64,000 bases of DNA from Deltaproteobacteria bacterium (GCA_016699445.1 CP064976.1:2222619-2286618); one strand, 5' to 3'; numbered from the stretch's first letter, positions 1 to 57,491 are shown. Made by a program: numbers and translations. The notes: generated by a model not told the origin, from the sequence alone.

Positions 1-84
1 GCAAAATGTTTTGAAACACAAGACTTAAAAGAAGGCCTCGCGGCCTTTTTGGAAAAACGCGCTGCTAATTTTAAAGGAAACTAA
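1..84 (+). CDS. Enoyl-CoA hydratase/crotonase family protein, 3' end (partial, starts upstream of window)
   Basis: Frame 1 translates to ...KCFETQDLKEGLAAFLEKRAANFKGN*, the typical crotonase C-terminal motif; stop at 82-84. Confidence 0.6.
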   Translation, partial: AKCFETQDLKEGLAAFLEKRAANFKGN

Positions 85-200
85 CCCCCACCACCGCCTT
101 CGGCGGAGCCTCCCCCATAAATGAGGGAGGCCACTAAGGACCCTCCCTTTTTAGGGGAGGGAATTTGAGATAAACGAAGGTATATGAGGGTGGGGTAGGA
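85..200. repeat. Structured intergenic repeat, family A copy 1 (multi-hairpin element, supplies RBS for the downstream gene)
   Basis: Near-identical to 3737-3853 and 4265-4397; contains CCTCCC..GGGAGG and CCCTCCC-TTTTTA-GGGAGGG hairpins; ends GGGTGGGGTAGGAG 6-7 nt before ATG at 208. Confidence 0.8.
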
Positions 201-207
201 GATAAAC

Positions 208-1350
208 ATGGACTTCAAATTATCCGACGAACAGAAAATGATTCAAAACATGGCTCGTGACTTCGCTCAAAAAGAAGTTGCGCCTAAAGCCATGGAGCTC
301 GATCACAAAAGTGAATTTCCAGCGATTCATCTCAAAAAGATGGCGGAGCTGGGATTGATGGGGATGATGGTTCCGACCGAGTTTGGAGGATCCGGACTCG
401 ATGCGGTTTCGTATGTATTGGCTTTGGAAGAAATTTCTGCGGCCTGTGCATCGACAGCGGTAACGATGTCTGTGAATAATTCACTCTACTGTGGACCGAT
501 TGTTAAATTTGGAACTCAAGCCCAAAAAGAAAAGTATGTGACACCTTTTGCCAGCGGACAAAAGCTGGGTGCTTATGCTTTATCAGAGCCTGGAACAGGT
601 TCGGATGCAGCCAATCAAAAAACAACCGCTAAAAAAGTGGGTAATAAATGGATTTTGAATGGTCGTAAAAACTTCATCACCAACGGACCTAATGCAGATG
701 CGATGGTGGTGTATGCGATGAACGATCCTGAAAAGAAGCACAAAGGGATTTCGTGCTTTATTGTTGAAAAAAACTTCCCTGGATTTTCAGTTGGAAAAGT
801 TGAAAAAAAATTAGGCATCTGTGCCTCAAGTACTTCTGAAATTGTTTTGGATAACTGTGAAGTGCCAGAGGAAAACGTGTTGGGTGAGATTGGTAAGGGT
901 TTTACGATTGCCATGGATACACTCGATAATGGACGTATCGGCATTGCCACTCAAGCAGTTGGTATTGCTCGCGCGGCTTTAGAGCAGGCGACGAGCTATT
1001 CTAAAGTGCGAGAAGCTTTTGGTCAGGCTATTTCTGAATTTCAAGCCATCCAACATTTTATTGCCGACATGGCCACACAAACAGACGCGGCCCGCATGCT
1101 CGTTTGGCGCGCAGCTTGGATGAAAGATGCAGGACTCAACATCAACCGTGAAGCTGCGATGGCAAAACTTTTTGCCTCAGAAGTTTGTGGTTTTGTGACG
1201 AATAAAGCTGTCCAAATTCACGGGGGTTATGGTTACATTAAGGAATATCCTGTGGAACGTTTGTTCCGTGATGCGAAGATTACAGAAATTTATGAAGGTA
1301 CGAGCGAAATTCAGAGACTTGTGATCGCTCGGAGTGTTTTGAAGGGTTAA
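208..1350 (+). CDS. Acyl-CoA dehydrogenase (short/branched-chain type)
   Basis: 380 aa; full-length match in character to butyryl-CoA dehydrogenases (YGGYGYIKEYPVERLFRDAKITEIYEGTSEIQRLVIAR C-terminus). Confidence 0.9.
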   Translation: MDFKLSDEQKMIQNMARDFAQKEVAPKAMELDHKSEFPAIHLKKMAELGLMGMMVPTEFGGSGLDAVSYVLALEEISAACASTAVTMSVNNSLYCGPIVKFGTQAQKEKYVTPFASGQKLGAYALSEPGTGSDAANQKTTAKKVGNKWILNGRKNFITNGPNADAMVVYAMNDPEKKHKGISCFIVEKNFPGFSVGKVEKKLGICASSTSEIVLDNCEVPEENVLGEIGKGFTIAMDTLDNGRIGIATQAVGIARAALEQATSYSKVREAFGQAISEFQAIQHFIADMATQTDAARMLVWRAAWMKDAGLNINREAAMAKLFASEVCGFVTNKAVQIHGGYGYIKEYPVERLFRDAKITEIYEGTSEIQRLVIARSVLKG

Positions 1351-1377
1351 GTTTCAACGTATTAAAAAGGAGTCTTT

Positions 1378-2126
1378 ATGAAAAACAAAATAAAAAGTCT
1401 TGGGCTCGTTTCAGCTACTTTGCTGAGCGTCGCCTTTTATCAACAACAGGCCCCGCTGGGTGCGGTGGGGGTGGTGGCGCTTCAACTATTGATACATCCG
1501 CTTCAGCGAGTGTAGAGCAAAGGCAACAAGTCGCTCTTCAAATTATATCTAACTTGGGTAGTAGTTCTTCAACAAACCCTGCGGGTTTATTATTAGGTTC
1601 TGATGCTCCTGCTTTAACTTTGGATACAACAGTTGCTGTACCTTGTGATTCAGGCTCAGCGACAATTGTTGTGAATCCAGGAACTCCAACAGCTATTACT
1701 TATGATCACTGCCGTTTTGGAGATTATACTATTGATGGTTTGGCCACGATCACAACGACGAGTTTACATCATACCACCATTACTTATACTAATGTGACTT
1801 ATTCGACCACCAGTTGTGGAGCTTATGGTTTGAATGGCACAATTGGCATTGATTCTTCAGCAGCTTCAACAACTACGTTTTTACCTGTGACTGTGACTTA
1901 TGGTTTAAGCACACAACGTGGTGGAAGTGTTGGAACCATTACAGGAACAGTGACACATAATACCGGTGATACTTTGTCAGGTAACATGAATGTGACCAAT
2001 CCTAATTTTACCTGCAACTACAGCAACACAGCTCTTACATGTCCTGCTTTGACTTCAGCCTGCAGCTTGTCTTCAGCTAGCTTGTGTAATGGAAATGATT
2101 TTCGAACGGATATTTGCTCTCTCTAA
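1378..2126 (+). CDS. Secreted Thr/Ser/Cys-rich protein, probable lipoprotein; frame change near 1445-1460
   Basis: AAGGAG RBS then ATG at 1378 encodes signal peptide MKNKIKSLGLVSATLLSVAF in frame 1; the Thr-rich body (ORF 1554..2126) is in frame 0 and open upstream (..PAGCGGGGGASTIDTS..); a 1-nt indel in the GCCCC run would join them. Confidence 0.45.
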
Positions 2127-2128
2127 AA

Positions 2129-3736
2129 ATGGAAAAACAATTTAAAGAACGCCTTCCCGAATTTACGACCCTCTCATCCAAAAAGATCGAGAGGGTCTAT
2201 AATTCTGACTCGATTGCTCATCTTAATCCTGAAAAGGATTTAGGCGAGCCTGGAGAGTATCCTTTTACGCGTGGCGCTTACCCGACCATGTATCGCGGTC
2301 GTCATTGGACCATGCGGCAGTTTGCAGGTTTTGGAACAGCAGCAGACACCAATGAACGCTTTCATTATCTTTTGAATCAAGGGCAGACAGGTCTTTCGAC
2401 AGCTTTTCATTTTCCCACATTGATGGGTGTAGATTCCGATAGTCCGCGTGCGCGCGGTGAGGTGGGTGTGTGTGGTGTAGCGATTGATACGCTGCATGAC
2501 ATGGAAGTCCTCTTTAAAGGAATCAATCTCGAAAATGTGAGTACGTCGATGACGATTAATACGCCTGCGCCGATCTTACTCGCGATGTATTTGGAAGTGG
2601 CGGCTAAACAAAATTTTCAGCAGAAAAAATTATCTGGAACGGTGCAGAATGACGTCTTGAAGGATTTTATTGCTCAAAAAACTTGGATCTATCCACCCGC
2701 TCCCGCCATGCGTTTGTGTACGGATCTTTTTGATTATTGCCAAACAGAAGTGCCTCGTTGGCATCCCGTTTCAATTTCGGGATATCACATTCGTGAAGCC
2801 GGTTCGACGGCAGCTCAAGAGTTGGCTTTTACCCTTCGAGACGGAATTGAGTATGTGGATTATTGTGTGAAGCGTGGAATGAAAGTTGACGAGTTTGGTC
2901 CCAAACTTTCTTTTTTCTTTAATGCTCAGAGTGATTTTTTTGAAGAGATTGCCAAGTACCGTGCGGCTCGTCGTATTTGGGCACGCACCATGAAAGAACG
3001 TTTCGGTGCGACTAATCCCGAAGCGATGCGTGTGAAGTTTCATACACAGACGGCTGGATGTAGTTTGACGGCTCAACAGCCCATGAACAATGTTGTGAGG
3101 ACGACACTGCAAGCTCTCTCAGGTGTGTTGGGTGGGACTCAGTCATTGCACACCAATTCGCTTGATGAAACTTTAGCGTTACCCACAGAAGCTTCTGTGC
3201 GCATTGCTTTGCGTACACAACAAATTATTGCCTACGAAAGTGGTGTGACCAATACCGTTGATCCTTTTGCAGGATCTTACTTTGTTGAAAAACTGACTGA
3301 CGACATTGAACGAGAAGCTTTGGCCTATTTTAAAAAAATCGACGACATGGGTGGGATGGTGCGTGCGATTGAACTTGGTTACCCTCAAAAAGAAATTATT
3401 GAAGCGGCTTACCGTTATCAAAAGCAGTTGGAGACTAAAGAAAAAATCATGGTGGGTGTACAAGACTTTGTGATTGAAAATGAGCCTCCGATTGACGTAC
3501 TCCGCATCGACCCTCAAGTGGAACAAAGACAGATTGAAAGTACACGGCAGGTAAAAGCCAAACGCAATAACGCTGCGGTGAAAGCGGCTTTAAGTGATTT
3601 GAAAAAAACAGCCGAAGGTTCGGCTAATCTCATCCCCAATATCCGCAATGCTGTTCGTGAGTATGCGACATTGGGAGAGATGATTGATACGATGAAGGAA
3701 GTGTTCGGGGCTTATAAGGATCCGGGGCATTATTAG
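2129..3736 (+). CDS. B12-dependent acyl-CoA mutase, catalytic (large) subunit, isobutyryl-CoA mutase-like
   Basis: ATG at 2129; methylmalonyl-CoA mutase family TIM-barrel domain without fused B12 domain; Phe in TMRQFAGF and Gln in DFIAQKTWIYPP at positions of MCM Tyr89/Arg207. Confidence 0.85.
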   Translation: MEKQFKERLPEFTTLSSKKIERVYNSDSIAHLNPEKDLGEPGEYPFTRGAYPTMYRGRHWTMRQFAGFGTAADTNERFHYLLNQGQTGLSTAFHFPTLMGVDSDSPRARGEVGVCGVAIDTLHDMEVLFKGINLENVSTSMTINTPAPILLAMYLEVAAKQNFQQKKLSGTVQNDVLKDFIAQKTWIYPPAPAMRLCTDLFDYCQTEVPRWHPVSISGYHIREAGSTAAQELAFTLRDGIEYVDYCVKRGMKVDEFGPKLSFFFNAQSDFFEEIAKYRAARRIWARTMKERFGATNPEAMRVKFHTQTAGCSLTAQQPMNNVVRTTLQALSGVLGGTQSLHTNSLDETLALPTEASVRIALRTQQIIAYESGVTNTVDPFAGSYFVEKLTDDIEREALAYFKKIDDMGGMVRAIELGYPQKEIIEAAYRYQKQLETKEKIMVGVQDFVIENEPPIDVLRIDPQVEQRQIESTRQVKAKRNNAAVKAALSDLKKTAEGSANLIPNIRNAVREYATLGEMIDTMKEVFGAYKDPGHY

Positions 3737-3853
3737 GGCCCCCACCACCCCTTCGGGGAGCCTCCCCCATAAATGAGGGAGGTCACAAAGGACCCTCCCT
3801 TTTTAGGGGAGGGAAATTGAGAGAATCGAAAGTAGTGATGGGTGGGGTAGGAG
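3737..3853. repeat. Structured intergenic repeat, family A copy 2
   Basis: GGCCCCCACCACCCCTTCGGGGAGCCTCCCCCATAAATGAGGGAGG...GGGTGGGGTAGGAG; ends 7 nt before ATG 3860. Confidence 0.8.
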
Positions 3854-3859
3854 AAAATT

Positions 3860-4264
3860 ATGGAAAGAAAACTTAGAATACTAGTCGCTAAACCCGGTCT
3901 TGATGGACATGACCGTGGAGCTAAAATTATCGCACGTGCTTTACGTGATGCTGGTTTTGAAGTGATTTATACAGGTCTACACCAAACCCCTGAAATGATC
4001 GCTGATGCCGCTTTGCAAGAAGACGTCGATTTAGTGTCTCTCTCTATTTTATCCGGAGCTCACAATCACTTAATGCCCGAAGTGATTCGTCTTTTGAAAG
4101 AAAAGGGAATGGGGGATGTGTCCATCATTGGTGGTGGTATCATTCCTCAAGAAGATATTGTGACGTTGAAACAACAAGGCGTGAAAGAAATTTTTACTCC
4201 AGGAACCGACACGCGTGATGTTGTGAAGTGGATCGAAACCAATATCCAACCACGAAGTTTATAA
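3860..4264 (+). CDS. Acyl-CoA mutase B12-binding (small) subunit
   Basis: 134 aa with cobalamin-binding DxHxxG motif ([15 protein letters not shown]) and Rossmann-like B12 domain. Confidence 0.85.
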
Positions 4265-4397
4265 TCCCCCACCACCCCTTCGGGGAGCCTCCCCCATAAA
4301 TGAGGGAGGCCAAAAAACAAAAAATCGCAAAATAAATGACCCTCCCTTTTTAGGGGAGGGAAGTTCCTATCATGAAATTATTGAGGGTGGGGTAGAG
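4265..4397. repeat. Structured repeat, family A copy 3 (with ~25-nt internal insertion); 3' arm overlaps the UbiA-like gene C-terminus
   Basis: Same 5' half as copies 1-2; the GGGTGGGGTAG arm read on the minus strand encodes the terminal ..LPHPQ* of ORF 4378..5238. Confidence 0.75.
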
Positions 4398-5238
4398 AAA
4401 TCCACACGCCTACAAAAAACAAGATCGAAATAATCCCGTTTACATTAAAGAAGGCCGCGTTGACCTTCGAAAGATCTTTGTCTGACACTAACGAATGTTC
4501 ATATAAAAACAATCCAGCAATTACGCTGAGAGTGATGAAATAAGTCCAGCCAAAGTGGTTTAAGATTCCGAAAGCTAAGAGCAGGAGTAAGGTGATCAGG
4601 TGAAAGAGGCGTGCGAGCAGTAGAGCTTTGCTAATACCCAGAGCCACCACCATTGAATGCAATCCTGATTGTTTATCAAAGTCATAATCTTGAGTAGCAT
4701 AAATCAAATCAAAACCCGCGACCCATAAAGTGACCGCAATACCTAAAAGGACAGGGATGAAAGCCACTTCTCCACGCATGGCGACCCAAGCGCCAATGGG
4801 AGACATGCCTAAAACACAGCCTAAGATAATATGAGAAAGAGATGTGAATCGTTTTGCCAACGAATAACCATAAGCGGCGCTCAGCGCGATGGGTGAGAGT
4901 TGAAATGCCAGAGTATTAATTTGTGTGCATAAAATGACAAAGAGGATTCCACAAAAAATAGAGGTGATCAGGACTGATTGTTTCGAGAGAATATTTTGAG
5001 GAATGTGACGCACCGCTGTTCGTGGATTTTTGGCATCGATGTCGGCATCAACCCAACGATTAAAAGCCATGGCTCCAGTGCGCAAAGCGACCATGGCTAA
5101 AACCATCAAAAATAAAATCCGAAAAGGCGGATGTCCTTGAGAGGCAATCATGAGAGAGGCGAGAGCAAAGGGAAGGGCGAAAATCGAATGCGAGAACTTC
5201 ACCATTTCGCCAAATTGTCTGATTTTCTTAATTTCCAT
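4378..5238 (-). CDS. UbiA-family aromatic prenyltransferase (MqnP/4-hydroxybenzoate polyprenyltransferase-like)
   Basis: 286 aa polytopic membrane protein with NRWVDADID (NxxxDxxxD) motif. Confidence 0.8.
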   Translation of the reverse strand: MEIKKIRQFGEMVKFSHSIFALPFALASLMIASQGHPPFRILFLMVLAMVALRTGAMAFNRWVDADIDAKNPRTAVRHIPQNILSKQSVLITSIFCGILFVILCTQINTLAFQLSPIALSAAYGYSLAKRFTSLSHIILGCVLGMSPIGAWVAMRGEVAFIPVLLGIAVTLWVAGFDLIYATQDYDFDKQSGLHSMVVALGISKALLLARLFHLITLLLLLAFGILNHFGWTYFITLSVIAGLFLYEHSLVSDKDLSKVNAAFFNVNGIISILFFVGVWISLPHPQ

Positions 5239-5782
5239 ACCGAGGCCTCAAGTCATTCCCAACCCCCAAATGATCCAAGACGCGAGCAATCACGGTATCT
5301 ACCGCTTCTTCAATCGTTTTGGGTTTTGAATAAAACGACGGAATCGCGGGAATGATCTCAGCTCCGGCCAAAGCCAAAAGGCGCATATTCTCAATATGAA
5401 CCAGGTTGAAAGGCGTCTCGCGAGGGACGAGAATCAACGTCTTCTTCTCTTTCAGAAACACATCGGCAGCCCGTGTCAGCAAGCTATCGGAATAGCCATG
5501 AGCGATCCGCCCCAAAGTGCCCATGCTGCACGGGATGATGACCATAGCGTCATAATGAGCTGTCACGGCGGAACCACTCGCAAAGGGTGCAGAAAAATCT
5601 TTTTGCCCAAAAAATGGAACGTCGAGAGATGTATAATCCGTGCTCATCTCATCAAGGCCGATTTGCAAAGCATTAGGACTCGCCGTGAGTTCGAGAGAAT
5701 GCCCAGCCTCTTTGAGGCAGTGAATAGTGCGCGTGGCATAAATAGCTCCGCTAGAGCCGCTGATTCCGAGGACAATTTTCAT
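5228..5782 (-). CDS. ubiX: Flavin prenyltransferase UbiX
   Basis: 184 aa, MKIVLGISGSSGAIYA N-terminus and full-length UbiX/Pad1 flavoprotein character; overlaps start of downstream UbiA-like gene. Confidence 0.85.
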   Translation of the reverse strand: MKIVLGISGSSGAIYATRTIHCLKEAGHSLELTASPNALQIGLDEMSTDYTSLDVPFFGQKDFSAPFASGSAVTAHYDAMVIIPCSMGTLGRIAHGYSDSLLTRAADVFLKEKKTLILVPRETPFNLVHIENMRLLALAGAEIIPAIPSFYSKPKTIEEAVDTVIARVLDHLGVGNDLRPRYGN

Positions 5783-5792
5783 AGGATGATTT

Positions 5793-7007
5793 TCATGCTT
5801 TCTCCTCAGGTGGTAAATGCCAAGGCTGTATGTTCATTCCAAGAAAGGGATAAGGATTTTCAAGAGGGACCATGAGGTAAAACTGGTTTGCTTTCTTCCC
5901 TAATTCTTTTTTGGCTTTCTCGAGTTGTTTCAACGTATCTTGAGTGATGGTGCGTGTACTTTTGATTTCATAAACGTCCCAGAGTGTTTGATTTTGGACC
6001 ATCAGATCAATTTCCAACGACGGCGTCTTGAGATAATAGTGTGGAGGCATTTCCCCTTGGCTCGTCCAATGTTTGATCAGATTAGTCACGACCAAGGTTT
6101 CAAAAAGAGGCCCAAACTGTGGAGAGCCTGCGATGAGTGAGGGATCCCGAAACCCCATTAAATAACAGGCAAGACCGACATCCATAAAATACATCTTGGG
6201 TGACTTCCGGATCCGTGACGAAATATTTTCATAAAAGGGTTCCACAAGATGGACTTGATAGGTTTGCACGAGAAGATTCAGCCAGCGCTGAGCGGTAGAA
6301 GGAGAGATGTTGGCGTCTCTGGCAAGATCACTGACGTTAAGGATTTGCCCAGTGCGGATAGCACACAATCTCACAAAACGTTCAAAGGAAAGAAGGTCAG
6401 CTACTTGTGCCAAAGAACGGATATCTCTCTCGAGATATGTATTCAAATAACTTCGATGCCAATCCGTAGGAAGGATATTTTGATCCCTCCATAATTCCGG
6501 AAAAAAACCTCGAAATAAAATTTGGGATAACGTGTCTTCCTGATGCCATTCTAAATCAATGGATGCGGAAATTTCTTTAACCGTAAGGGGATAAAGTGTG
6601 ATCAACCCAACACGTCCAGCCAAAGACTGAGTTACTTGTTCCATCATTAAAAAATTCTGGGAACCCGTCAGGATATACTGACCCTTTTCATCACGTTTTG
6701 CGTCGATACGACTTTGGAGATAGCTGGTCAGGTCAGGAACATTTTGGAATTCGTCAAAAATTACCGGAGGAGGGTAGCGATCCAAAAAGCTTTTGGGATC
6801 TTGCAGTACTTGCGCTCTCAGATCCAGGTCTTCAAGAAGGACATAATGATGAGTCTTGCAGTGCTCTTTGATAAAAGAGGTCTTTCCGACTTGTCGAGCC
6901 CCTGTCAGGATAATAGCGGGAAAAGACTTGAGAAAACGATCAAAAACACCCTCAAATTGCCTCGTAAACATTTGAAAAATAATAATATATGCAAATTGAT
7001 TATTCAA
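5793..7007 (-). CDS. AAA+ ATPase with DUF4143-type C-terminal domain
   Basis: Walker A GARQVGKTS near N-terminus; ~400 aa architecture typical of the ATPase/DUF4143 family; true start may be an internal Met. Confidence 0.7.
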   Translation of the reverse strand: MNNQFAYIIIFQMFTRQFEGVFDRFLKSFPAIILTGARQVGKTSFIKEHCKTHHYVLLEDLDLRAQVLQDPKSFLDRYPPPVIFDEFQNVPDLTSYLQSRIDAKRDEKGQYILTGSQNFLMMEQVTQSLAGRVGLITLYPLTVKEISASIDLEWHQEDTLSQILFRGFFPELWRDQNILPTDWHRSYLNTYLERDIRSLAQVADLLSFERFVRLCAIRTGQILNVSDLARDANISPSTAQRWLNLLVQTYQVHLVEPFYENISSRIRKSPKMYFMDVGLACYLMGFRDPSLIAGSPQFGPLFETLVVTNLIKHWTSQGEMPPHYYLKTPSLEIDLMVQNQTLWDVYEIKSTRTITQDTLKQLEKAKKELGKKANQFYLMVPLENPYPFLGMNIQPWHLPPEEKA

Positions 7008-7024
7008 TAATTAATTTGCATGAA

Positions 7025-7714
7025 TTATTTATCCGCCACGATTAAATGCGAAATACCACCCGTTTGTGCGGTAATTTTGATGTTCTTAAAGCCTGTTTGT
7101 TCTAATAATTTTCGGTACTCTTCCGTCGTGTAAAATTTCCGCACGGAATCGCGCAAATGTTCATAAGCCGACTTATTCTTAGACACTAAGGATCCTAATA
7201 CTGGAATGACAACTTCCGCGTAGGTGATGTTGAAAAGCTTCGGGAGAAGCTCCGTGGGCTTGAAGAATTCTAAGACCACGAGACGTCCGCCGGGTTTTAG
7301 CCATTCGTAAATATTCTGGAGTGCGAGGGGATTGTCTCCCACATTGCGCATTCCATAAGCCACCATCGCACCATCATAAGAAGAGCGGGGGATATCCAAG
7401 GCCAGTATATCCCCAATCTGAATTTGAATCTGCTTGCGTTCTTCTGGCGTCAAAAGGGCTTCACCTTTTTTGAGCATGTTTTCAGAAAAATCCACAGCGG
7501 TGATCTGAGTCATGGGATTGGTTTCCAAAAGTGTTTTGGAGAGAGCCAAAGTCCCGGCACAGAGATCCAGGATTTTCTGAAATTTTTTCGAATCAGAAAA
7601 TTCTTTCATCCCTTGCCGCCGCCACCGACGGTCGACTTGAAAAGAAAGCAGCGAATTCAACAAATCATATTGAGGCGCGATGGAGTCAAAAAGTTTCTGG
7701 ATGTGTTCGGACAT
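7025..7714 (-). CDS. ubiE: Demethylmenaquinone/ubiquinone C-methyltransferase UbiE/MenG
   Basis: 229 aa class I SAM methyltransferase with UbiE-type motifs (LDLCAGTL, VAYGMRNV). Confidence 0.85.
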   Translation of the reverse strand: MSEHIQKLFDSIAPQYDLLNSLLSFQVDRRWRRQGMKEFSDSKKFQKILDLCAGTLALSKTLLETNPMTQITAVDFSENMLKKGEALLTPEERKQIQIQIGDILALDIPRSSYDGAMVAYGMRNVGDNPLALQNIYEWLKPGGRLVVLEFFKPTELLPKLFNITYAEVVIPVLGSLVSKNKSAYEHLRDSVRKFYTTEEYRKLLEQTGFKNIKITAQTGGISHLIVADK

Positions 7715-7746
7715 GGGTCCGCCCTAACGAGGACGCCCTCACTTGT

Positions 7747-9810
7747 CTATCTTCCATTAGGTCTTGGAAATGGTCCGGCATCTGCCGCAAAACCTATACG
7801 TGTCGTTTCAGCTCTGAGTAATGCTACTCTCATTTGTCTGGCACGAAAAGCGTCTGGATGCTTGGCTTCTGCTAAATCATCAGGTTTGAAATGTTTTACG
7901 AGTGCGGCAAAAGCTGGACGGACTCCCAATGGTGAATAGCCAAACATATTATGAGGAGATCGAAATCCTGTAAGATCACGAGGTATATCGGGTGAAGGCA
8001 CAGCACCCACATGGAAATTATTAGCCATCATGATGCGTTCAGCATCAGGAATCTTATCATCTCTGACATGCATGCCAGCGATATTACGCCGTGGAATGTA
8101 TTCATTGGGCACGAAAAGCGCTCCCTTCCGACGAAGAGGCGCATAAGGTGAAGGGAAAGGAAATGAAGAGATTCGTGTGCCTGAATCAAATAAGGCATTA
8201 CTTCTTCCTCGTTTGATATTAGTTTTCATTATTTCATAAATCGCTGAAGGATCTTTGCGACTTAAAAATCCTCCTGTTGTATTCAATAAATGCCCTCTCA
8301 TCACAGGAACAAAATTAAATATTTTTTCGGCGATGATAGAGTCTGGTTCAAGACCGAAAAGATATAAAGAACCAATGATGCCACAATAATCAAAAGCTCC
8401 TGTGTGATCCCAGGCTGAAATATTCCCTTGGGAAGGTTGTCGTTGTTGATCATGTCCTGAAAAAAGAAGATCAGCTCCTAGGATATTTTCGATTCCTTCG
8501 GGAACTCGATGCCTAAACATAAAATCTTTATCTGATTCACTTCCAATGATTCGGATTCCTGAGTAAGCATTGACAAGCATGGGTAGCGCCCATCGATTCG
8601 CTATCTGATGGTCATACTCTTGCTGAGTCAGTTTGCCATTTCTCAAATCGCTAATAAGATGTCGAGGGTGAGATGTGAGCTCATATAATAACTCCAGTGA
8701 CTGCATTCCCGTAGGCCCTTGATCGATGCGGTACGCTTGAGTTCTGGAAAGAAAAGTTGTGATGGGAATTTGAATATCCCATTTTTTAAGTATTTTTTGA
8801 GCGGCTTCATGTAAGTTCCAAAGTGCATTAAAACTTTTTTCTTCTCGTTTTTTTCGTTCATTTTCACGAGCGTTTTTATCTCCACCAATCATGGTTTGAT
8901 TATAGGCTATGTAGTTTTCAGTGAGAGATTTGTAAGCATTTCGAGCTACTGTAAACTCATCACATTCTTGAGACGTAGCTCTGTCTTTAAATTTGAGAAA
9001 AACATTGTCGTAAACAGTCAGCTGCCATTCGAGCTCAATATTTTCTATTTTGAGATGAAGCGGAAGTGCTTCTTGCCAAAGCTTATACTCTCTTTCAAAT
9101 GAGTTTTCTTGAGTACTAGATGGTGAAGCAAAAAATAATTCACGATAATCTTCATTAGCTTCCAACGCTTGAGCGTATAAGCCCGAGAGTTTGTCTTGTA
9201 TCTCTTGTGGTAAAACTGCCATGACGCGATCGTAAGCTGCTTCACTCCATTCAAGATCCGCTGCATGAAAACGTTCATAAGACGCCCGTCTTTCAGCTGT
9301 TTCAATGTGTGAAGGAATCGCTTCATAAACAACTTTTTCTTCAACAAGTTTTCTAACGGCTGCAGGATCGGTGACCAGATGGGCAGGAGGGGGTGGGGAT
9401 TTAGGAAATTCGCGAATCAAGCGAGCTCCTAAATACCCTAAAACTGTAGAACTTTTTCTTCCCAAGGTATCAATCGCTTCAACTCCTGGAGCTTCACTCA
9501 CAGAAACATTCAAAGCTTCTGCAATATTTTTATTAAAAATAGGAGCCAAAGAAGGGTGATAACTATGAGGTTGAAGCGTCGTAAAAAAGTCTCGTGCTTC
9601 AGGGATGGTTTGAGGAGGCGTTGATGACAATCCCACTAGATTTTGATCCAAAGATTTTAGCTCTTGATGTAAGTACTGAGCGATAGCCATTATTGGCGCT
9701 TCGCTCAGTCTATCTGTTTTCTGTTGGGCTAAAAAATCACGAAAATTAAGTGTGGATAAAAAATGGCTCGTGGCAAAAGTCAGGGCTTGGTTTGTTGAAG
9801 GGGAAATCAT
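7747..9810 (-). CDS. Hypothetical protein, 687 aa, no recognised domain; polar uncharged N-terminus
   Basis: Long ORF, 28-nt spacing to upstream gene, N-terminus MISPSTNQALTFATS. Confidence 0.6.
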   Translation of the reverse strand: MISPSTNQALTFATSHFLSTLNFRDFLAQQKTDRLSEAPIMAIAQYLHQELKSLDQNLVGLSSTPPQTIPEARDFFTTLQPHSYHPSLAPIFNKNIAEALNVSVSEAPGVEAIDTLGRKSSTVLGYLGARLIREFPKSPPPPAHLVTDPAAVRKLVEEKVVYEAIPSHIETAERRASYERFHAADLEWSEAAYDRVMAVLPQEIQDKLSGLYAQALEANEDYRELFFASPSSTQENSFEREYKLWQEALPLHLKIENIELEWQLTVYDNVFLKFKDRATSQECDEFTVARNAYKSLTENYIAYNQTMIGGDKNARENERKKREEKSFNALWNLHEAAQKILKKWDIQIPITTFLSRTQAYRIDQGPTGMQSLELLYELTSHPRHLISDLRNGKLTQQEYDHQIANRWALPMLVNAYSGIRIIGSESDKDFMFRHRVPEGIENILGADLLFSGHDQQRQPSQGNISAWDHTGAFDYCGIIGSLYLFGLEPDSIIAEKIFNFVPVMRGHLLNTTGGFLSRKDPSAIYEIMKTNIKRGRSNALFDSGTRISSFPFPSPYAPLRRKGALFVPNEYIPRRNIAGMHVRDDKIPDAERIMMANNFHVGAVPSPDIPRDLTGFRSPHNMFGYSPLGVRPAFAALVKHFKPDDLAEAKHPDAFRARQMRVALLRAETTRIGFAADAGPFPRPNGR

Positions 9811-9838
9811 AAAATCCTCATTTTTATAGTTTTAGTTT

Positions 9839-11647
9839 TTATGCGGCTACTTGAAGAGGTATCGACTTATCGTATTCATACTTTTTCACAAGTTTAGAGA
9901 CTTCAAATAGAAGTTGTTGGATAGCCGCTTCATCTTTTTGTGAAGAGGTCAGATGTCTTTTCATTATTGATAGCAATCGTCGTTTCATTTCTTCTCGATC
10001 ATCTTTTGCTTTTTGAGGAGGGATAGCTCGGATGCGAGCAATGATAGTGAAATAACGTTCTTCTTCTGAAGTAAGTTTGGTTATTTCATCTTCACTTATT
10101 TCTGTATTGAGAGCCGATGACCATTGAGTGGCGAGATTTGCAAGATACTGATCTGCAGGGCTGTAAGCACGTATAAGTGCATGGACTTTATCTATGATTT
10201 CTTGATCGGGAGTGTCTGCTGTTACATAAAAACCACCCGTCTGACGAAAATCAATAGTTCCTCCCGTAATGATAGGCTGAATGAATGGAAAAGTGTCTGT
10301 GAATTTTGGATCAATCGTAGTGCCTCCTAAAATATCAATGACAGAAATAAATACAGCTTTATTCATTTTTGCAGAAGTAGCTTTTGCAAGTTTAATTAAG
10401 CCAAAAATATTATCATAACGTTCAGGATGTTCTAATTTTACCACATTGTCATACATCGTGGGTATATCTAGAGTACCATTGTCTCGATAAACACGTGGAG
10501 CTCGTCCTCCTTGAACAAAAACGGCTGGCTCAATACCGAGTTTTTCAACGTTGTTTACAGTTTCATTAAAAGCTTCGGTTTGTGAGTCTTTGTTAGTGTT
10601 ATCACCATTCTGTTTAATCGCTGGTGGGAGAGCTAATACATCCATTAACCAAGAAAATAGAATCATTTTAGCTGCACGATTATTTCTAAAATTACTAATA
10701 TTTGCCATGAATCGTATTAAAGGACGAAGCGCAAATAAAGTGTAATTCGTCCACATCGTATGTCCATAAAGAGCATGAAAGATAGGTGTTCCTTTTGAAA
10801 CGTTTATTAAATTATCGAAACCCTGAGATGTCATACTCATCTTGTAGATTCGTGCTTGTCTTTGAGCCCAATAACCTAAAGCGTACCCAATGGCTTGTGT
10901 AAACTCAGGTGTGGCTTTTGCTTTACCTCCCATGAAAACTGTAGCGATATTGACAACAGTTTGAACAAATCCTTCCGCATGGACAGACGTGCGTCTAGCA
11001 AGTCCGAAAATTGTAGAAGCAGTATTAAGAAGTCCTGCATAGAAAGCTTTTTCAGAAGGAATTCTTTCTACACCCTCTCCATAGCGAGGCATGTTATTTT
11101 CTAACAAGTCTTGATGTTCAAACTCTTTAGGAACATCAGCCCCCAAAACTCCCAGGGCATTATGCTCAAACCTTTCCCAAGCATCCATTGTCAGCATCGC
11201 TCCTGCCGCCATTTGATTTTTGATGATAGCGTTTTCAACTCTATTGCTGTGATCTAAGGCTGCTAATGTAGAACCTAAAACGGCAGCAGCTGCCATTTGA
11301 GCTGGGTGAGAACCATAAGCATAAGCTATAAAAGGCATTAGCAAAGCTCTCCAGGGACTTAATTTCGAGTCCATTCTTCCAAATCGTTCGTTCCAATAAG
11401 CGAGTGCAGAACTTCTTTCTGGATTCATTTGCTTTCTTAAATCATCGGGCAGGATGGGACGAAATCCTCTGGCTAAGAGTCTGAGAACGGGTACCGTATA
11501 AGTAAGAGTCATAAGAGCATCAAGTGCGTAATTCGTTCCTGTCAAAACAGGTGCTGCTTGAGCTAAAGCTTCAAGGGGTTGAGTGTAGGCCGCTATTCCA
11601 ACAGCACCAGGAAGTACGCGAGCTGTAATAGAGTTTGGAGATGTCAT
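9839..11647 (-). CDS. Hypothetical protein, 602 aa, no recognised domain; polar uncharged N-terminus
   Basis: Long ORF, N-terminus MTSPNSITARVLPGAVGIA; AT-rich 200-bp upstream spacer. Confidence 0.6.
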   Translation of the reverse strand: MTSPNSITARVLPGAVGIAAYTQPLEALAQAAPVLTGTNYALDALMTLTYTVPVLRLLARGFRPILPDDLRKQMNPERSSALAYWNERFGRMDSKLSPWRALLMPFIAYAYGSHPAQMAAAAVLGSTLAALDHSNRVENAIIKNQMAAGAMLTMDAWERFEHNALGVLGADVPKEFEHQDLLENNMPRYGEGVERIPSEKAFYAGLLNTASTIFGLARRTSVHAEGFVQTVVNIATVFMGGKAKATPEFTQAIGYALGYWAQRQARIYKMSMTSQGFDNLINVSKGTPIFHALYGHTMWTNYTLFALRPLIRFMANISNFRNNRAAKMILFSWLMDVLALPPAIKQNGDNTNKDSQTEAFNETVNNVEKLGIEPAVFVQGGRAPRVYRDNGTLDIPTMYDNVVKLEHPERYDNIFGLIKLAKATSAKMNKAVFISVIDILGGTTIDPKFTDTFPFIQPIITGGTIDFRQTGGFYVTADTPDQEIIDKVHALIRAYSPADQYLANLATQWSSALNTEISEDEITKLTSEEERYFTIIARIRAIPPQKAKDDREEMKRRLLSIMKRHLTSSQKDEAAIQQLLFEVSKLVKKYEYDKSIPLQVAA

Positions 11648-20484: not shown

Positions 20485-20537
20485 TAAATTCCTATTGGAA
20501 TAAAATATTCTAATAGGAATATTTTATTGTAGATTGG

Positions 20538-20615
20538 CTGTCATCGCGAGCGAAGCGTGGCGATCTCCCGATATTAAGTGTGAGATCGCCACGCCCTTCA
20601 GGCTCGCGATGACAG
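20538..20615. repeat. Hairpin repeat, family B copy 1 (long imperfect inverted repeat)
   Basis: CTGTCATCGCGAGCGAAGCGTGGCGATCTC ... GAGATCGCCACGCCCTTCAGGCTCGCGATGACAG; related copy at 44448-44526; lies 3' of the MqnC/E gene. Confidence 0.75.
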
Positions 20616-20618
20616 GCA

Positions 20619-21438
20619 ATGTTTCCCTATATAAATATGAATCTTCATTGTTTAAAAATTAAAAGCCAAACCGCCCCTCATAAAACCTTCTTTTTCCTCC
20701 ACGGTATTATGGGACGTGGGAGAAATTGGCAGCGCTTTGCGACAGAGCTAGTTCAGCGAAAACCAGATATCGAAGCGGTATTGGTCGATTTGCGTTTGCA
20801 TGGCGAGTCTCAAGGTTTTGATCCACCGCATACAGTACGAGCTTGTGGTGAAGATGTGGTAGGGGCAATTCATGAATTGCCCTTACAAAATGAAAAAAGT
20901 GATCGTTGGACATTCGTTCGGAGGGAAGGTGGCTCTGGAAGTTGCGCGACTCGCTCCTGATTTACTTTCAGCAATTTGGCTCATTGATTCATTTCCAGGT
21001 TTGTCTGCAAGGCATGGTGATGCTTGGAAAATGATTGAATGGCTTCAAAAAAATGAAGGTCCTTTTACAACACGGACAGAAGTGCTTAAAAAATTAAAAG
21101 AAGCGCAATTTCCCGAAGCCATCGCTGCGTGGATGGCGACCAATCTAGAACCCGAAGGAAAACTTTTAAAATGGATTTTCCCCGTGAAGGGCATCGCGAG
21201 TCTATTAGATGATTACGCCAAAACAGATTTGACCGACACACTCCTCAATCCACCATGTCCTATACATGTCGTGAAGGGGACAAAGTCGCCTTTGATTACG
21301 GATGATTTAATCCAGAAAATCCAACATTCAAAAACCAGATTTCCAATTTCCCTTCACTTCGTCGAAGCCGGACATTGGGTGCATTCTGAAAATCCGAAAG
21401 AATTGCTAAGAATAATGATGTCATCTTTTAAAGGATAA
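20619..21438 (+). pseudogene. Alpha/beta hydrolase, reading frame interrupted by a 28-bp palindromic insertion
   Basis: N-part FFFLHGIMGRGRNW..DLRLHGESQ (frame 0) and C-part KKVIVGHSFGGKVA.. (frame 1, GxSxG nucleophile); deleting 20859-20886 joins ..GEDV to KMKKVIVGHSFGG in frame. Confidence 0.65.
20859..20886. mobile_element. 28-bp palindromic insertion element, copy 1 (one mismatch)
   Basis: GTAGGGGCAATTCATGAATTGCCCTTAC; same element at 25885-25912; exact excision restores the hydrolase frame. Confidence 0.75.
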
Positions 21439-24258: not shown

Positions 24259-24651
24259 TTATTTAGGGCCAATGATTTTAGCATCTGTCTTTTTGAAATC
24301 ACTGTCTAAGGTAAGAATCGGGCAACGCTCTTCCATGGCTAAGGCATAGGCAAAACAGTCACCTAAATTGATGGGGTAAGTCAGGCGGGCTTTAGCTGCT
24401 GTAACTGATTGATTTGTTGAAGGGGGTATAAATTGGATACCTGATGAAAGGATTTCGTCTTTAATTTTGGAGAAGAGTTTGGGCTGCTTGTCCTGAAGAA
24501 GAATGAGGGTTTCAGTGAGGTTGACGGTGCTCATCAGAAGCTCATGTCGATGAGCTTCTAGCTGATCTTCAACCCAGACGGCATGAGTTTCATTTAAAAA
24601 AAGAGCTAAGAGAGCTGAAGTATCAATGACCATATTATTTCCAAAGGTCAT
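24259..24651 (-). CDS. VapC PIN-domain toxin
   Basis: VIDTSALLALF.. and C-terminal LTLDSDFKK PIN motifs; overlaps upstream antitoxin. Confidence 0.75.
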   Translation of the reverse strand: MTFGNNMVIDTSALLALFLNETHAVWVEDQLEAHRHELLMSTVNLTETLILLQDKQPKLFSKIKDEILSSGIQFIPPSTNQSVTAAKARLTYPINLGDCFAYALAMEERCPILTLDSDFKKTDAKIIGPK

Positions 24652-24926: not shown

Positions 24927-26215
24927 TTACAACACATCCATAAACGCACTCACCGAAAAGACGGCCTTGCCTAATCCTGCTTCTCCATAACCGGGTGGGA
25001 TGGGGAGTTTGTATTTGTAAAAAGTCTCTCGATACACTTGGAGGAGGCGTAAGTAATAATCCAGAGGTGGCGGGCCTTCGTTGGTTTTGGCCAATGTGGT
25101 GTTCGGTTCGACACACCACACGGTGAAGCGGGGGCAGATGGATTGTGACATGAAAAAATCTAAACCCTCTTGCGTAGATCGAATCGCAGCTTCGATATCC
25201 GTGAAGCCAAAAGGTTTGGCCATCTCGATGCCGGCAACAAAATTAGGAATGACTTTTTCAGGGCCGAAAATTTTGGCTCCAGCCAGAATGCGGCGGATCC
25301 ATTCTTTTGACCGACATAGCGTGTTTTACCAGGACAGACGTGGTTAAAAATCTTTTCATCCCAGACTTCATAATTCGGGTGATAAATTTGATAGCCGGAA
25401 TCTTTTAAAATTTTAATTTCGTCATCAGGCAATCCTTGCACCACAGCCTTGCCAATCCAACGCCCGGGAAATTTTGCCTCGATGGCTTGAGCATATTGAG
25501 CGTAAAACTGTGCCTCGTTCATGCCACCCAGTTGTGAAGTGATACTGCCTCCGGTGACGGTATAAGCATGGCTCAGTTTTTGAGGATCATGTTTTTCAAT
25601 AATCTGCAGGGCTTCGATGACTTCATCTAAAGATTTGATTCCTGTATAAGAACGACCTTCGGCCTTTTGTTGGCGGTAGTTGTGGTTGATGTCGCAAAAC
25701 GCACATTCTTCTTCGGCTCCAAAATACTGACAGAGACGGAAGGCGGTAATGTAAATCAAATATCCCCACTCAATCGTGGGTGTGATATCGCTGACAGGTT
25801 TTCCATTAGCGAGGGGTTGTGCGTAATAATCCGGAAATGATGGGAGAAGAATGTCGCAGATTTTTTCGTCGTGAAAAAATAATTGTAGGGGCAATTCATG
25901 AATTGCCCCTACGGTGATTCGATACGGCGATTCCGGATTCACACGTACAGAAACTATCGTACGTTTAAAATCAAAAGGTCCTCCAATGAGGGCAATTTCT
26001 TCAGGTGCTGATTTTTTTTCTAGTTGTGAAAGATCTTTTTGAGCGGTGCGATCAAAGGAAAAAATAAAATAGGATTTTGGTTTGGCAGCTTTGCAGGCTT
26101 CCAAGGCTTCATTTGAAAATGAAATACCTAAACGTAGTAGATCTGTTTTGATGATCGCTTCAAATGGAATATCGCAGTATGTCTCCTTCAATATTAAAAA
26201 ATCTTCAGGCTTCAT
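24927..26215 (-). CDS. Hypothetical protein with Cys cluster (CX8CX2C) and TGG motif, possibly radical-SAM-like; contains the 28-bp palindrome in frame and a frame change near 25310
   Basis: ORF 25160..26215 reads through the palindrome (..ITVGAIHELPLQLFF..); C-terminal continuation in the frame of ORF 24927..25223 (..RRILAGAKIFGPEKVIPNFVAGIEMAKPFGFTDIEAAIRS..). Confidence 0.4.
25885..25912. mobile_element. 28-bp palindromic insertion element, copy 2 (perfect palindrome)
   Basis: GTAGGGGCAATTCATGAATTGCCCCTAC; encodes VGAIHELPL in the host ORF, the same peptide as copy 1. Confidence 0.75.
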
Positions 26216-44314: not shown

Positions 44315-44447
44315 CTCGTTCTCCCTAGGGCCTATAAGAGCAAGCAAGAGGCCAAAGAAAAAAGATGGTTAAGTTGATGAAATGATAGGGATTGATGCAG
44401 TGCGGCCAAGGTTAAAGCTGGGGTGAGAAATCCTCATAAAGAGTTGT

Positions 44448-44526
44448 GTTATGGCGAGCGAAGCGTGGCCATCTCCCGACCTTTATGAGATCACCACGTC
44501 GGCCTTCGGCCTCCTCGTGATGACAG
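44448..44526. repeat. Hairpin repeat, family B copy 2
   Basis: ..GGCGAGCGAAGCGTGGCCATCTCCCGAC..GAGATCACCACGTCGGCCTTCGGCCTCCTCGTGATGACAG; lies immediately 3' of efp. Confidence 0.7.
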
Positions 44527-44530
44527 AACA

Positions 44531-45091
44531 CTACTCAGCTCTTTCGACGTATTCGTTTGAGGATGTGTCGACTTTGACCTTATCTCCCACTTGGATAAAT
44601 TGAGGTACTTTTACTGTTAAGCCATTGTCCAGCACAGCTGGTTTGGCACTTCCAGAAGCGGTGGCACCCTTCATTGGAGGATCGGTGTCTTTGACTGTTA
44701 AAACCATCGTTCCAGGGAGCTCCACTCCGATCGGACGTTCTTCATAAAATTCGATCGATACTTTTGTATTGGGTTGAAGATAGTGAACGGCATTTCCCAG
44801 ATCTTCTTTGTTCATATGAATCTGTTCGTAGGTGGTAGAATCCATAAACACAAACTGCTCACCATCTTGATAAAGATATTCCATTTCCTTTTCAACAAAA
44901 GTGGCTTTTTCCACACTATCTTCTGCACGAAATCGATGTTCATTTTTTAGACCTGTGCGCATGCTGCGAAGCTGGGTCATGACTTTAGCGCGAAGATTTC
45001 CAGGAGTCAGATGGTCTACTTTAAGAACACGATAAAGCTCTCCATCAAGAACAAGAGCCATTCCGACACGAATTTTTGTTGCTGGTAACAT
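44531..45091 (-). CDS. efp: Elongation factor P
   Basis: 186 aa, full-length EF-P (KPGKG-type loop region, three beta-barrel domains). Confidence 0.9.
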   Translation of the reverse strand: MLPATKIRVGMALVLDGELYRVLKVDHLTPGNLRAKVMTQLRSMRTGLKNEHRFRAEDSVEKATFVEKEMEYLYQDGEQFVFMDSTTYEQIHMNKEDLGNAVHYLQPNTKVSIEFYEERPIGVELPGTMVLTVKDTDPPMKGATASGSAKPAVLDNGLTVKVPQFIQVGDKVKVDTSSNEYVERAE

Positions 45092-46779: not shown

Positions 46780-46851
46780 GCGGGAGTAGCTCAGTGGTAG
46801 AGCGCCACCTTGCCAAGGTGGATGTCGCGGGTTCAAATCCCGTCTCCCGCT
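46780..46851 (+). tRNA. tRNA-Gly (anticodon GCC)
   Basis: Cloverleaf: acceptor GCGGGAG/CTCCCGC, D-arm GCTC..GAGC, anticodon loop TTGCCAA, T-arm GCGGG-TTCAAAT-CCCGT; no encoded CCA. Confidence 0.85.
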
Positions 46852-47022: not shown

Positions 47023-47355
47023 GTGAGCGTGATATTTGAGCTTAAATGTTATCAAGAAGGCGGTCAGATTCCTTTTTCAGAATGGTTGGATGAATTGGAT
47101 GCTAGGACAGCAGGTCGTATTAGAGCTTATACTGAAAGAATGAGGAGTGAAAATTTTGGCGATACGAAAAATGTTGGACGTGGAGTTCTAGAGCTGAAGC
47201 TTAATTTTGGTCCAGGATATCGAGTATACTATCTGCGTGACGGTGTGTCGGTTGTATTGCTTTTGTGTGGTGGTGATAAAGGTTCGCAAGAGAAAGACAT
47301 TCAACAAGCTCATAACTTTGCTCAAAATTATTGGAGGCAACGTGAAAAAAAATAA
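47023..47355 (+). CDS. HigB/Gp49-type addiction-module toxin (RelE/ParE superfamily)
   Basis: 110 aa; ..GRGVLELKLNFGPGYRVYYLRDGVSVVLLLCGGDKGSQEKDIQQA.. matches phage Gp49/HigB pattern. Confidence 0.7.
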   Translation: MSVIFELKCYQEGGQIPFSEWLDELDARTAGRIRAYTERMRSENFGDTKNVGRGVLELKLNFGPGYRVYYLRDGVSVVLLLCGGDKGSQEKDIQQAHNFAQNYWRQREKK

Positions 47356-47671
47356 TCTACCATATGTTTCTTATGAAGAAGAGCAGATTCGTGAATTTCG
47401 TGAAGATCCTGAACGAGCGATGGAATATCTAAATGCTTGTGTTGAGGTGGCGTTTGAAGAAAACGAGCCTGAGTTAGTTTTGAATGCCTTAGCTGTTATT
47501 GCAAAAGCCTATGGTATTACAAAGTTGGCGAAAAAGACCCATATTCAAAGAGAAAGTATTCATCGCATGTTTTCCAAAGGGGGTAACCCAGAATGGAAAA
47601 GTATTTTTAAAATGTTTAGGGCTTTAAAAATAAGAATGAAGCTTGAGTTTTTAAACCCATTAGTTGTTTGA
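47342..47671 (+). CDS. HigA-type addiction-module antidote protein (HTH)
   Basis: GTG start overlapping toxin stop; FREDPERAMEYLNACVE...LALNALAVIAKAYGITKLAKKTHIQRESIHRMFSKGGNPEWKSIFKMFRALKIRMK matches antidote family. Confidence 0.7.
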   Translation: MKKNNLPYVSYEEEQIREFREDPERAMEYLNACVEVAFEENEPELVLNALAVIAKAYGITKLAKKTHIQRESIHRMFSKGGNPEWKSIFKMFRALKIRMKLEFLNPLVV

Positions 47672-57409: not shown

Positions 57410-57491
57410 GTAGGGGCGCCATTCATGGCGCCCCTTTATTTACTGCGATAAATTAGGGCGTGATGAACACGCCCCTACCGTGGGGGTAGGG
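57410..57491. repeat. Three tandem GC-rich hairpins related to the 28-bp palindrome
   Basis: GTAGGGGCGCCATTCATGGCGCCCCT; AGGGCGTG-ATGAAC-ACGCCC; CCCTACC-GTGG-GGGTAGGG; directly 3' of thiolase stop. Confidence 0.6.

Follow-up and report, generated by a model that had tools for sequence, protein, structure and literature searches.

When a structured sequence recurs at one gene boundary after another of a bacterial operon, a question arises: does this sequence belong to the operon, as an RNA through which its genes are regulated, or did it get there from elsewhere? The question is raised by a stretch of 64,000 nucleotides (nt) from an uncultivated bacterium labelled Deltaproteobacteria, with 42% GC (GCA_016699445.1 CP064976.1:2222619-2286618; this whole stretch is referred to below as the window, with coordinates counted from its first letter), in which an element of 117-134 nt is present in three direct (+)-strand copies at the acyl-CoA mutase operon. 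The original prediction, made from the sequence alone, allowed for both possibilities, a REP/MITE-like mobile element and an operon-specific RNA structure (processing or attenuation site). As argued here, it appears likely that the element is a non-coding, strain-variable interspersed repeat, organized as an inverted dimer of the BoxC/PIT type, and not a conserved part of the operon's design.

Copies of the element and their sites in other strains

The copies, identified by repeat detection and direct reading, all lie at gene junctions:

85..207, + strand: copy 1, the whole insert, between the enoyl-CoA hydratase stop codon (TAA 82-84) and the acyl-CoA dehydrogenase ATG (208)
3737..3859, + strand: copy 2, between the stop codon of the mutase large subunit (TAG 3734-3736) and the ATG of the B12-binding small subunit (3860)
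4265..4399, + strand: copy 3, between the convergent small-subunit gene (stop 4262-4264) and UbiA-like gene

No fourth copy was found elsewhere in the 64 kb, which agrees with the original prediction; the cores CCTCCCCCATAAATGAGGGAGG, CCCTCCCTTTTTAGGGGAGGG and GGGTGGGGTAG occur exactly three times each in the window, with 1-3 mismatches tolerated, as compared to 0.00, 0.00 and 0.31 occurrences expected by chance from shuffles. The claim that the copies share more than 90% identity requires qualification. Copies 1 and 2 are 90% identical in a global alignment and differ by 12 events in 120 columns, whereas copy 3 is 91-92% identical to them over the aligned columns but only 75-77% overall, owing to a ~20-nt A-rich insertion between two of its hairpins (P2 and P3, described below) and to a diverged 3' linker.

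The answer to the question comes, above all, from the comparison of strains. The small-subunit protein has an exact match also on Logan contig L078 (SRR12404947), the DNA of which is 96.6-97.4% identical to positions 197-9925 of the window and which, given this level of identity, represents a sister strain. The copy 1 site in L078 is empty: the contig reads ...GGAAACTAA-TC-ATGGAC..., with 2 nt between the hydratase stop codon and the dehydrogenase start codon, whereas in the window GGAAACTAA is followed by an insert that begins with CCCCCACC, ends with GGGGTAGGAGATAAAC and runs directly into ATGGAC, so that 123 nt take the place of TC. It is this empty site that fixes the boundaries of copy 1 at 85 and 207. 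The copy 2 site in L078 is occupied by an unrelated insert of 116 nt (L078 9429-9544), the 3' end of which is a G-tract hairpin, GGGGTTGGGGGAGAG-AGCGGTAT-CTCTCCCC; this alternative insert consists of a G-tail followed by GGGGGAGAG-loop-CTCTCCCC, to the 5' side of which lies an A/T hairpin, and an inverted relative of it is located 8.6 kb away on the same contig (L078 844-886). Copy 3 is retained in L078, with 133 of 134 positions identical. Hence, two of the three element sites differ between the window and a strain that is ~97% identical to it, and no other large insertions or deletions were seen over the ~25 kb compared, which include, in addition to L078, a second contig of the same sample (L087, retrieved by an exact look-up of the EF-P protein) that is collinear with the window and carries no element.

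The comparison with orthologous operons, suggested along with the original prediction, gave a uniform picture: the element is missing from all the distant operons fetched, namely those of L079 (GCA_964555055.1, with a small subunit that shows 95% amino-acid identity to that of the window), L080-82 and L083-85, and all of these have tight junctions. Specifically, their hydratase-dehydrogenase and large-small subunit junctions measure 19, 8, 15 or 1 nt or consist of a TAATG overlap, the junction equivalent to the copy 2 site being 8 nt, 1 nt or overlapping. From these tight junctions in the relatives it follows that the ancestral state was tight as well, and the ancestral junctions were probably translationally coupled. 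The copies were thus inserted at or near stop codons in the lineage of this species and have been gained, lost or replaced between strains; with the empty copy 1 site and the replaced copy 2 in a ~97% identical strain, the mobile-element alternative of the original prediction is the one that has held up. Judging from these comparisons, the elements are recent, lineage-specific insertions, the turnover of which is ongoing.

The origin of copy 1 can be addressed in the same way. The copy 3 orthologues of the window and L078 differ by 1 position in 134, as compared to the 12 events in 120 columns that separate copies 1 and 2, and this difference suggests that the donor of copy 1 was located outside the window, an argument that is weakened by the neutral divergence between the strains, which may amount to several percent. 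An exact-protein look-up found no record for the acyl-CoA dehydrogenase of the window.

Anatomy of the element and its effects on neighbouring genes

The element consists of a C-rich tail, three hairpins (P1, P2 and P3) and a G-rich tail:

85..92, + strand: copy 1, left C-rich tail CCCCCACC, the 5' arm of a closing helix; its minus-strand reading, GGTGGGGG, serves as third block in the left unit
94..106, + strand: copy 1, hairpin P1, CCGCC-TTC-GGCGG
108..131, + strand: copy 1, hairpin P2, GCCTCCC-CCATAAATGA-GGGAGGC, an inverted copy of the P3 unit
141..161, + strand: copy 1, hairpin P3, CCCTCCC-TTTTTA-GGGGAGGG
188..201, + strand: copy 1, right G-rich tail GGGTGGGG, the mirror of GGGGAGGG with A changed to T, and then TAGGAG
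3739-3746, 3748-3758, 3760-3783, 3793-3813, 3840-3847 and 3849-3853, + strand: copy 2, C-rich tail, P1, P2, P3, G-tail and AGGAG, respectively
4266-4273, 4275-4285, 4287-4310, 4311-4337, 4340-4360 and 4385-4392, + strand: copy 3, C-rich tail, P1, P2, A-rich spacer, P3 and G-tail, respectively

All three hairpins are surrounded by the closing helix, CCCCACC/GGTGGGG, which the original prediction had missed, as it had the inverted-dimer design. Nor is P1 the CCCC-UUCG-GGGG tetraloop on a 4-bp stem that had been described: copies 2 and 3 have CCCC-UUC-GGGG (11 nt; CCCC-TTC-GGGG in the DNA), whereas the hairpin of copy 1, CCGCC-UUC-GGCGG, includes one more G:C pair, added by a change on both sides. 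The stems of P2 and P3 are 7-10 bp long; in copy 1, P2 on the minus strand forms a 10-bp stem that includes a G.U pair. As anticipated, a stable structure is predicted for each of the three copies, and this holds for either strand, with folding energies of -51 to -57 kcal/mol and z-scores of -2.0 to -3.8.

The dimeric nature of the element follows from the comparison of its hairpins. The minus strand of P2 (GCCTCCCTCATTTATGGGGGAGGC) matches the plus strand of P3 (CCCTCCCTTTTTAGGGGAGGG) with an alignment score of 9, as compared to a score of 1 for the two plus strands, and in each of the two hairpins a G.U pair on the "own" strand corresponds to a C.A mismatch on the opposite one; therefore, the element is an inverted dimer. 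Copies 1 and 2 have 9 nt between P2 and P3, and copy 3 has 29 nt. On the plus strand, the right half reads CCCTCCC / TTTTTA / GGGGAGGG / 24-26 nt / GGGTGGGG, and the left half, on the minus strand, reads CCTCCCTC / ATTTAT / GGGGGAGG / 14-16 nt / GGTGGGGG, the 14-16 nt being hairpin P1. The third block is an exact mirror of the second one, with T opposite A, in all six half-elements. Since the two G-rich tails face outwards, the C-rich 5' arm and the G-rich 3' arm come to form the closing helix on the transcribed strand. The hairpins and their loops are near-invariant and the linkers are variable; given this invariance and the two-sided change in P1, some structural constraint must exist.

Each copy also contains a mini-ORF (open reading frame, ORF) that starts from an ATG in the P2 loop (121-168, MREATKDPPFLGEGI; 3773-3820, MREVTKDPPFLGEGN; 4300-4335, MREAKKQKIAK). 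It comprises 15 codons in copies 1 and 2, the frame is not kept in copy 3, and the nearest GGAG is located 12 nt 5' of the ATG; the mini-ORF is probably incidental.

What, then, does an insertion do to the genes on either side of it? Copies 1 and 2 share the 3' end GGGGTAGGAGA, and both have, as had been claimed, an AGGAG placed 6 nt before the next start codon (197-201 before ATG 208 in copy 1, and before ATG 3860 in copy 2), so that the donation of a Shine-Dalgarno sequence is a plain fact of the sequence. The AGGAG in front of ATG 208 must have arrived with the insert because the empty site offers only 2 nt between the stop codon and the ATG; the possibility that a Shine-Dalgarno sequence was already present at the target is ruled out on the same grounds. 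In the folded ensemble, the probability of being unpaired is 0.49 for the AGGAG of copy 1 and 0.68 for that of copy 2, and 0.49-0.79 for the Shine-Dalgarno sequence together with the start codon. Thus, with AGGAG at its right end, an element inserted between two formerly coupled genes brings along a ribosome-binding site for the second one, 6 nt before the ATG. With the alternative insert that occupies the copy 2 site in L078, no obvious Shine-Dalgarno sequence precedes the start codon of the small subunit.

Copy 3 affects its neighbour on the other strand, where the UbiA-like ORF (4378-5238, minus strand) terminates in the 3' arm of the copy:

4378..4398, - strand: the last six codons of the UbiA-like gene (S-L-P-H-P-Q) and its TAA stop codon, all within the 3' end of copy 3
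4311..4360, - strand: terminator-like site on the UbiA strand (consensus scan), consisting of the minus strand of P3 (CCCTCCCCTAAAAAGGGAGGG) and, directly after it, a T-rich run from the copy 3 spacer

The claim that the last codons of the UbiA-like gene derive from copy 3 is therewith confirmed, for six residues and the stop codon; the UbiA orthologue of L079 ends with ETYHKSSK and not with SLPHPQ. The terminator scan of the minus strand flags, by consensus match, P1 in copy 1 and P3 in the other two copies, and in copy 3 only is the flagged hairpin followed by a long T-rich run (TCATTTATTTTGCGATTTTTTGTTTTTT). An intrinsic terminator serving the operon on the (+) strand was considered and rejected since no hairpin on that strand is followed by a T-run. 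Copy 3 seems to have been co-opted as the 3' end of ubiA, to which it contributes six codons, the stop codon and a hairpin with a T-run. All these effects on neighbouring genes, i.e. the ribosome-binding site, the C-terminal codons and the terminator-like site, are best explained as incidental and, in part, co-opted.

Known repeat families and rival explanations

How widespread is such an element? The exact P3 21-mer was found, in a scan of a metagenome collection, at 76 loci with a GC content of 34-72%, none of which belongs to the source species or carries the full element. Counted over 67 distinct contexts, a G-rich tail is present no more than 6 nt away in 53 and GGG[TA]GGG follows after a 2-8 nt loop in 28; a second similar hairpin within 160 nt is seen in 30, with both inverted arrangements represented (tails outside in ~16 and inside in ~11, the remaining ~3 being tandem). 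Three scans of viral contigs returned 0, 1 and 0 matches. The P2 22-mer has a single match in the genome collection, in an unrelated metagenome-assembled genome from Hydrogenophilaceae (L001), which could reflect chance, convergence or horizontal spread. In this high-GC genome, the exact 22-nt P2 with its loop lies at 5990-6090 of JACAEC010000077.1, among C-/G-rich tracts nested much as in the element (ACCCCATCCCC...GGGGATGGGGTGGGG). A further observation concerns metagenome Ga0172379 (~36% GC), where the CCCTCCC-TTTTTA-GGGGAGGG + GGGGTGGGGTGTTTC unit forms inverted, tails-inward pairs (L028 2166-2331, L070 6-172, L071 2414-2581) that flank a core of ~95 nt; the core recurs on several contigs and has no Rfam match, and the pairs and the core together may be a high-copy composite repeat of that organism.

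Among the known systems, the closest in design are the intrastrand-triplex repeats known as BoxC, PIT (potential intrastrand triplex) or TMECO, which occur in E. coli as well as in other Proteobacteria and in Cyanobacteria (Holder et al. 2015, PMC4666352, where earlier work by Hoyne and Maher is cited). The TMECO pattern is CCCTCNCCC N3-6 GGGNGAGGG N3 GGGNGAGGG; strain MG1655 has 23 copies at 18 sites, five of which are inverted pairs. These motifs are always intergenic, no association with mobile elements was found and neither promoter nor terminator activity was detected; the TMECO loci are markedly more rearranged among E. coli strains than control intergenic regions, by a mechanism that is left unexplained (PMC4666352). 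The element shares with them the succession of three blocks, in which a C-rich arm is followed by its G-rich complement and then by a G-rich tail that mirrors this complement (purine-motif triads G*G:C and T*A:T), as can be seen from the blocks CCCTCCC / GGGGAGGG / GGGTGGGG next to CCCTCTCCC / GGGAGAGGG / GGGTGAGGG of E. coli BoxC, and likewise the intergenic location, inverted pairs, conserved stems, strain-variable loci and the lack of a known associated mobility gene. It departs from TMECO in having blocks of 7-8 nt instead of 9 nt and a second loop of 24-26 nt in the right half and of 14-16 nt, which form a hairpin, in the left half, instead of 3 nt. Furthermore, its tails point outwards, whereas those of the first MG1655 pair (TMECO 1+2, coordinates from PMC4666352 Table 1) point inwards, and, unlike BoxC, PIT and TMECO, it bears a Shine-Dalgarno sequence, lies within an operon and resides in a low-GC uncultivated host.

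Also close to the element are the REP dimers and REPINs (Bertels and Rainey 2011, PMC3116915; Di Nocera et al. 2013, PMC3733652), which, similarly to it, consist of two inverted short palindromes that can fold as separate hairpins or a single long one. The distance of REP dimers from the upstream stop codon is up to ~20 bp, and the genes on their two sides are co-directional or convergent; these dimers occasionally overlap ORF ends and are paired in inverted orientation with spacers of mostly 20-100 bp (PMC3733652); the element, too, is stop-codon-adjacent between co-directional or convergent genes and sometimes supplies codons and stops. The stems of P2 and P3 fall within what is expected of a REP (a stem-loop of 20-40 bp with a stem of 6-13 bp). 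However, a GTAG/CGTC tag adjoins neither of the two hairpins, the flanks of which are GGAG/CCAC/TCAC, GGAC/GAAT and similar; the sole GTAG in the element is at its outer 3' end, 3' of the G-tail and 34 nt from P3. Unlike REPINs, the element comes with no RAYT seen and very few copies observed. The same three kinds of blocks are also found in G-quadruplex-prone interspersed repeats of the archaeal Methanomicrobiaceae, for example GGGGGGTGGGGG-CA-GGGGAGGGGG-CTCG-CCCCCTCCCC, which are intergenic, located mostly near gene ends, and can switch among hairpin, triplex and quadruplex forms in vitro (Chashchina et al. 2021, PMC8044849). Their polarity is the reverse of that of the element, with the G-tail 5' of the hairpin and the C-arm last; it is the alternative insert at the copy 2 site of L078 that follows the block order of these archaeal motifs rather than that of BoxC.

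In size and behaviour, the element also resembles the Correia repeats of Neisseria, the enterobacterial ERIC/IRU and the RPEs of Rickettsia, structured MITEs of ~100-150 nt that act in mRNA: they are transcribed together with neighbouring genes, form long hairpins, differ from strain to strain and can change gene expression or contribute coding sequence. In these families, however, the terminal inverted repeats are long, the target duplications are defined (TA in the case of Correia) and the copies number tens to hundreds, and none of these traits is apparent in the element. Nothing relevant was found in the literature that would link MITEs with Shine-Dalgarno sequences, and literature searches on the G-tracts led mostly to work on eukaryotic G-quadruplexes. 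Given that the element departs from the strict definitions of TMECO and of a tagged REP and does not clearly match that of a MITE, it is assigned to a general kind and not to one family: it is a small G/C-rich palindromic interspersed repeat of the BoxC/PIT/REP type that stays outside any one named family.

Could the element, nevertheless, be an operon-specific cis-regulatory RNA, that is, a series of processing, stabilizing or attenuation sites that set the expression of the hydratase, the dehydrogenase, the mutase subunits and UbiA? The stable structures would be compatible with this possibility, and so would the conserved hairpins with their variable linkers and the two-sided change in P1, as well as the fact that all three copies are oriented with the operon, coincide exactly with cistron boundaries and carry a Shine-Dalgarno sequence at their 3' ends. 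However, the element is not conserved with the operon, being missing (copy 1) or replaced (copy 2) in a ~97% identical strain and missing from the distant operons; its building block is scattered over many unrelated genomes; both strands fold equally well, as expected of palindromic DNA; and BoxC and PIT showed neither promoter nor terminator activity (PMC4666352). There is also no Rfam match to the element: the whole window at the gathering threshold and positions 1-4800 at E<=10 yielded only a tRNA at 46780 and one chance match. The second possibility offered by the original prediction thus finds no support, and we regard such an RNA as very improbable. Somewhat different considerations apply to a classical MITE, i.e. 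a deletion derivative of an insertion sequence that is mobilized in trans by a DDE transposase via terminal inverted repeats, with duplication of the target. The size of 117-134 nt, the lack of coding capacity, the insertion polymorphism, the terminal inverted sequences CCCCACC/GGTGGGG and a possible TAA duplication at copy 1 (CTAA|...|ATAA) would all fit, but the terminal repeats extend over 7-8 bp only and are better read as the mirror tails of two triplex-type units, the TAA duplication can be read at copy 1 only if one additional substitution is assumed, with nothing comparable at the other two copies, and an insertion sequence with matching ends is absent from the window and from L078; a MITE is, accordingly, very unlikely.

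We also consider quite unlikely a strict-sense REPIN, in which two inverted REPs would be moved by a RAYT (Y1/HUH) from a single-copy gene at another place in the genome. P2 and P3 are, indeed, inverted copies of one 7-10 bp stem-loop at a distance of 8-30 nt, as in REP dimers (PMC3733652), a position beside stop codons and an overlap with the end of an ORF are REP behaviour, and the window contains classical GTAG-headed palindromes (GTAGGGGCAATTCATGAATTGCCCCTAC), so that a RAYT may well exist in this genome. The missing tag at P2 and P3, the three copies in the window, which do not establish a high copy number, and the failure to find a Y1 transposase among the 10 small ORFs scanned speak against it.

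The interpretation that we prefer, a strain-variable repeat of the BoxC/PIT type, has to face several adverse observations of its own. The TMECO regular expression has 0 matches on either strand of the window, and although loop 1 measures 6 nt, loop 2, at 14-26 nt, exceeds the published ranges of 1-6 nt (ITxF) and 0-10 nt (Hoyne et al.). A Pfam scan of the 10 small ORFs of the window found neither a transposase nor a RAYT; an unambiguous target-site duplication was not found, with copy 1 as the one pair of empty and filled sites. All three copies lie inside 4.3 kb, a clustering with p~0.01 by a rough combinatorial estimate (~59 junctions in the window), which might be due to a local hotspot such as those described for TMECO loci. 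Finally, the constraint on the hairpins could be due to an RNA function and not to recognition by a mobilizing enzyme.

If the element is such a repeat, its persistence at these particular sites could be envisaged as follows. Selection would retain insertions into coupled junctions only when the G-rich, Shine-Dalgarno-bearing end faces the downstream start codon. Through the closing helix, the stop codon of the preceding gene (0-2 nt 5' of the 5' arm) would come to lie next to the Shine-Dalgarno sequence (right after the 3' arm), and, with the two so juxtaposed, a terminating ribosome could open the helix and thereby favour re-initiation. The cluster of hairpins in the mRNA might act as a REP-like barrier to 3'-exonucleases or as a translational decoupler. 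A more far-reaching version, which we deem rather unlikely, is that the element is a portable intercistronic module, adapted to the colonization of operon junctions, in which the helix preserves coupling and the hairpins set differential mRNA stability, and that it represents a new, cross-phylum REP-like superfamily with the GGGTGGGG mirror tail as its tag in place of GTAG or CGTC; if true, this would mean that coupling by re-initiation survives an insertion of 120 nt.

Already as a strain-variable repeat, the element is a clean natural case of the remodelling of operons by small palindromic repeats. The pair of strains captures a fresh insertion into a junction coupled over 2 nt, which is tolerated because the repeat brings its own ribosome-binding site, and, at the copy 2 site, the replacement of one repeat family by another at the same junction. 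The older copy 3 now appears to provide a gene with its C-terminal codons, stop codon and likely terminator. An uncultivated low-GC lineage is added to the known range of the three-block BoxC/PIT design, here in a form that has long second loops and outward tails, and the strain-level instability reported for such motifs in E. coli gains one further case. The element does not reveal a new regulatory RNA; the lesson for annotation is that a sister strain should be checked before structured repeats embedded in operons are named riboregulators.

Other features of the window

The window contains two further kinds of repeats. A second family, a near-perfect long hairpin of ~85 nt (GGCTGTCATCGCGAGCGAAGCGTGGCGATCTCCCGA...GAGATCGCCACG..CTCGCGATGACAGGC), is present twice, at 20535-20618 and 44445-44525; the short-read contig behind L087 ends inside the latter copy (window 44496), which suggests that this hairpin is multi-copy in that genome. 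GTAG-headed REP-like palindromes (GTAGGGGCAATTCATGAATTGCCCCTAC and a GGCGCC variant) are located at 20859-20888, 25885-25912, 57410-57437 and 57451-57478. The palindrome at 20859 lies within the frame of an alpha/beta-hydrolase, where it encodes ...VGAIHELPLQ...; this frame shifts at an A6 run just 3' of the palindrome, which may be a homopolymer error.

A lipoprotein gene between the dehydrogenase and mutase genes (1378-2126) is frameshifted near a T run at about 1435, which is TTTT in the window as compared to TTTTT in L078, where the gene is intact and encodes 249 amino acids; the frameshift represents either a pseudogene or a long-read homopolymer error. This gene is absent from the operons of L079 and L080-82. 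EF-P is encoded at 44534-45091 on the minus strand, by a gene whose protein product is identical to QQR80132.1. Two PIN-domain proteins and an addiction-module antidote-like protein are encoded by ORFs at 24262-24651 (minus strand), 33495-33929 (plus strand) and 47207-47668 (plus strand); thus, several toxin-antitoxin modules are scattered over the window.

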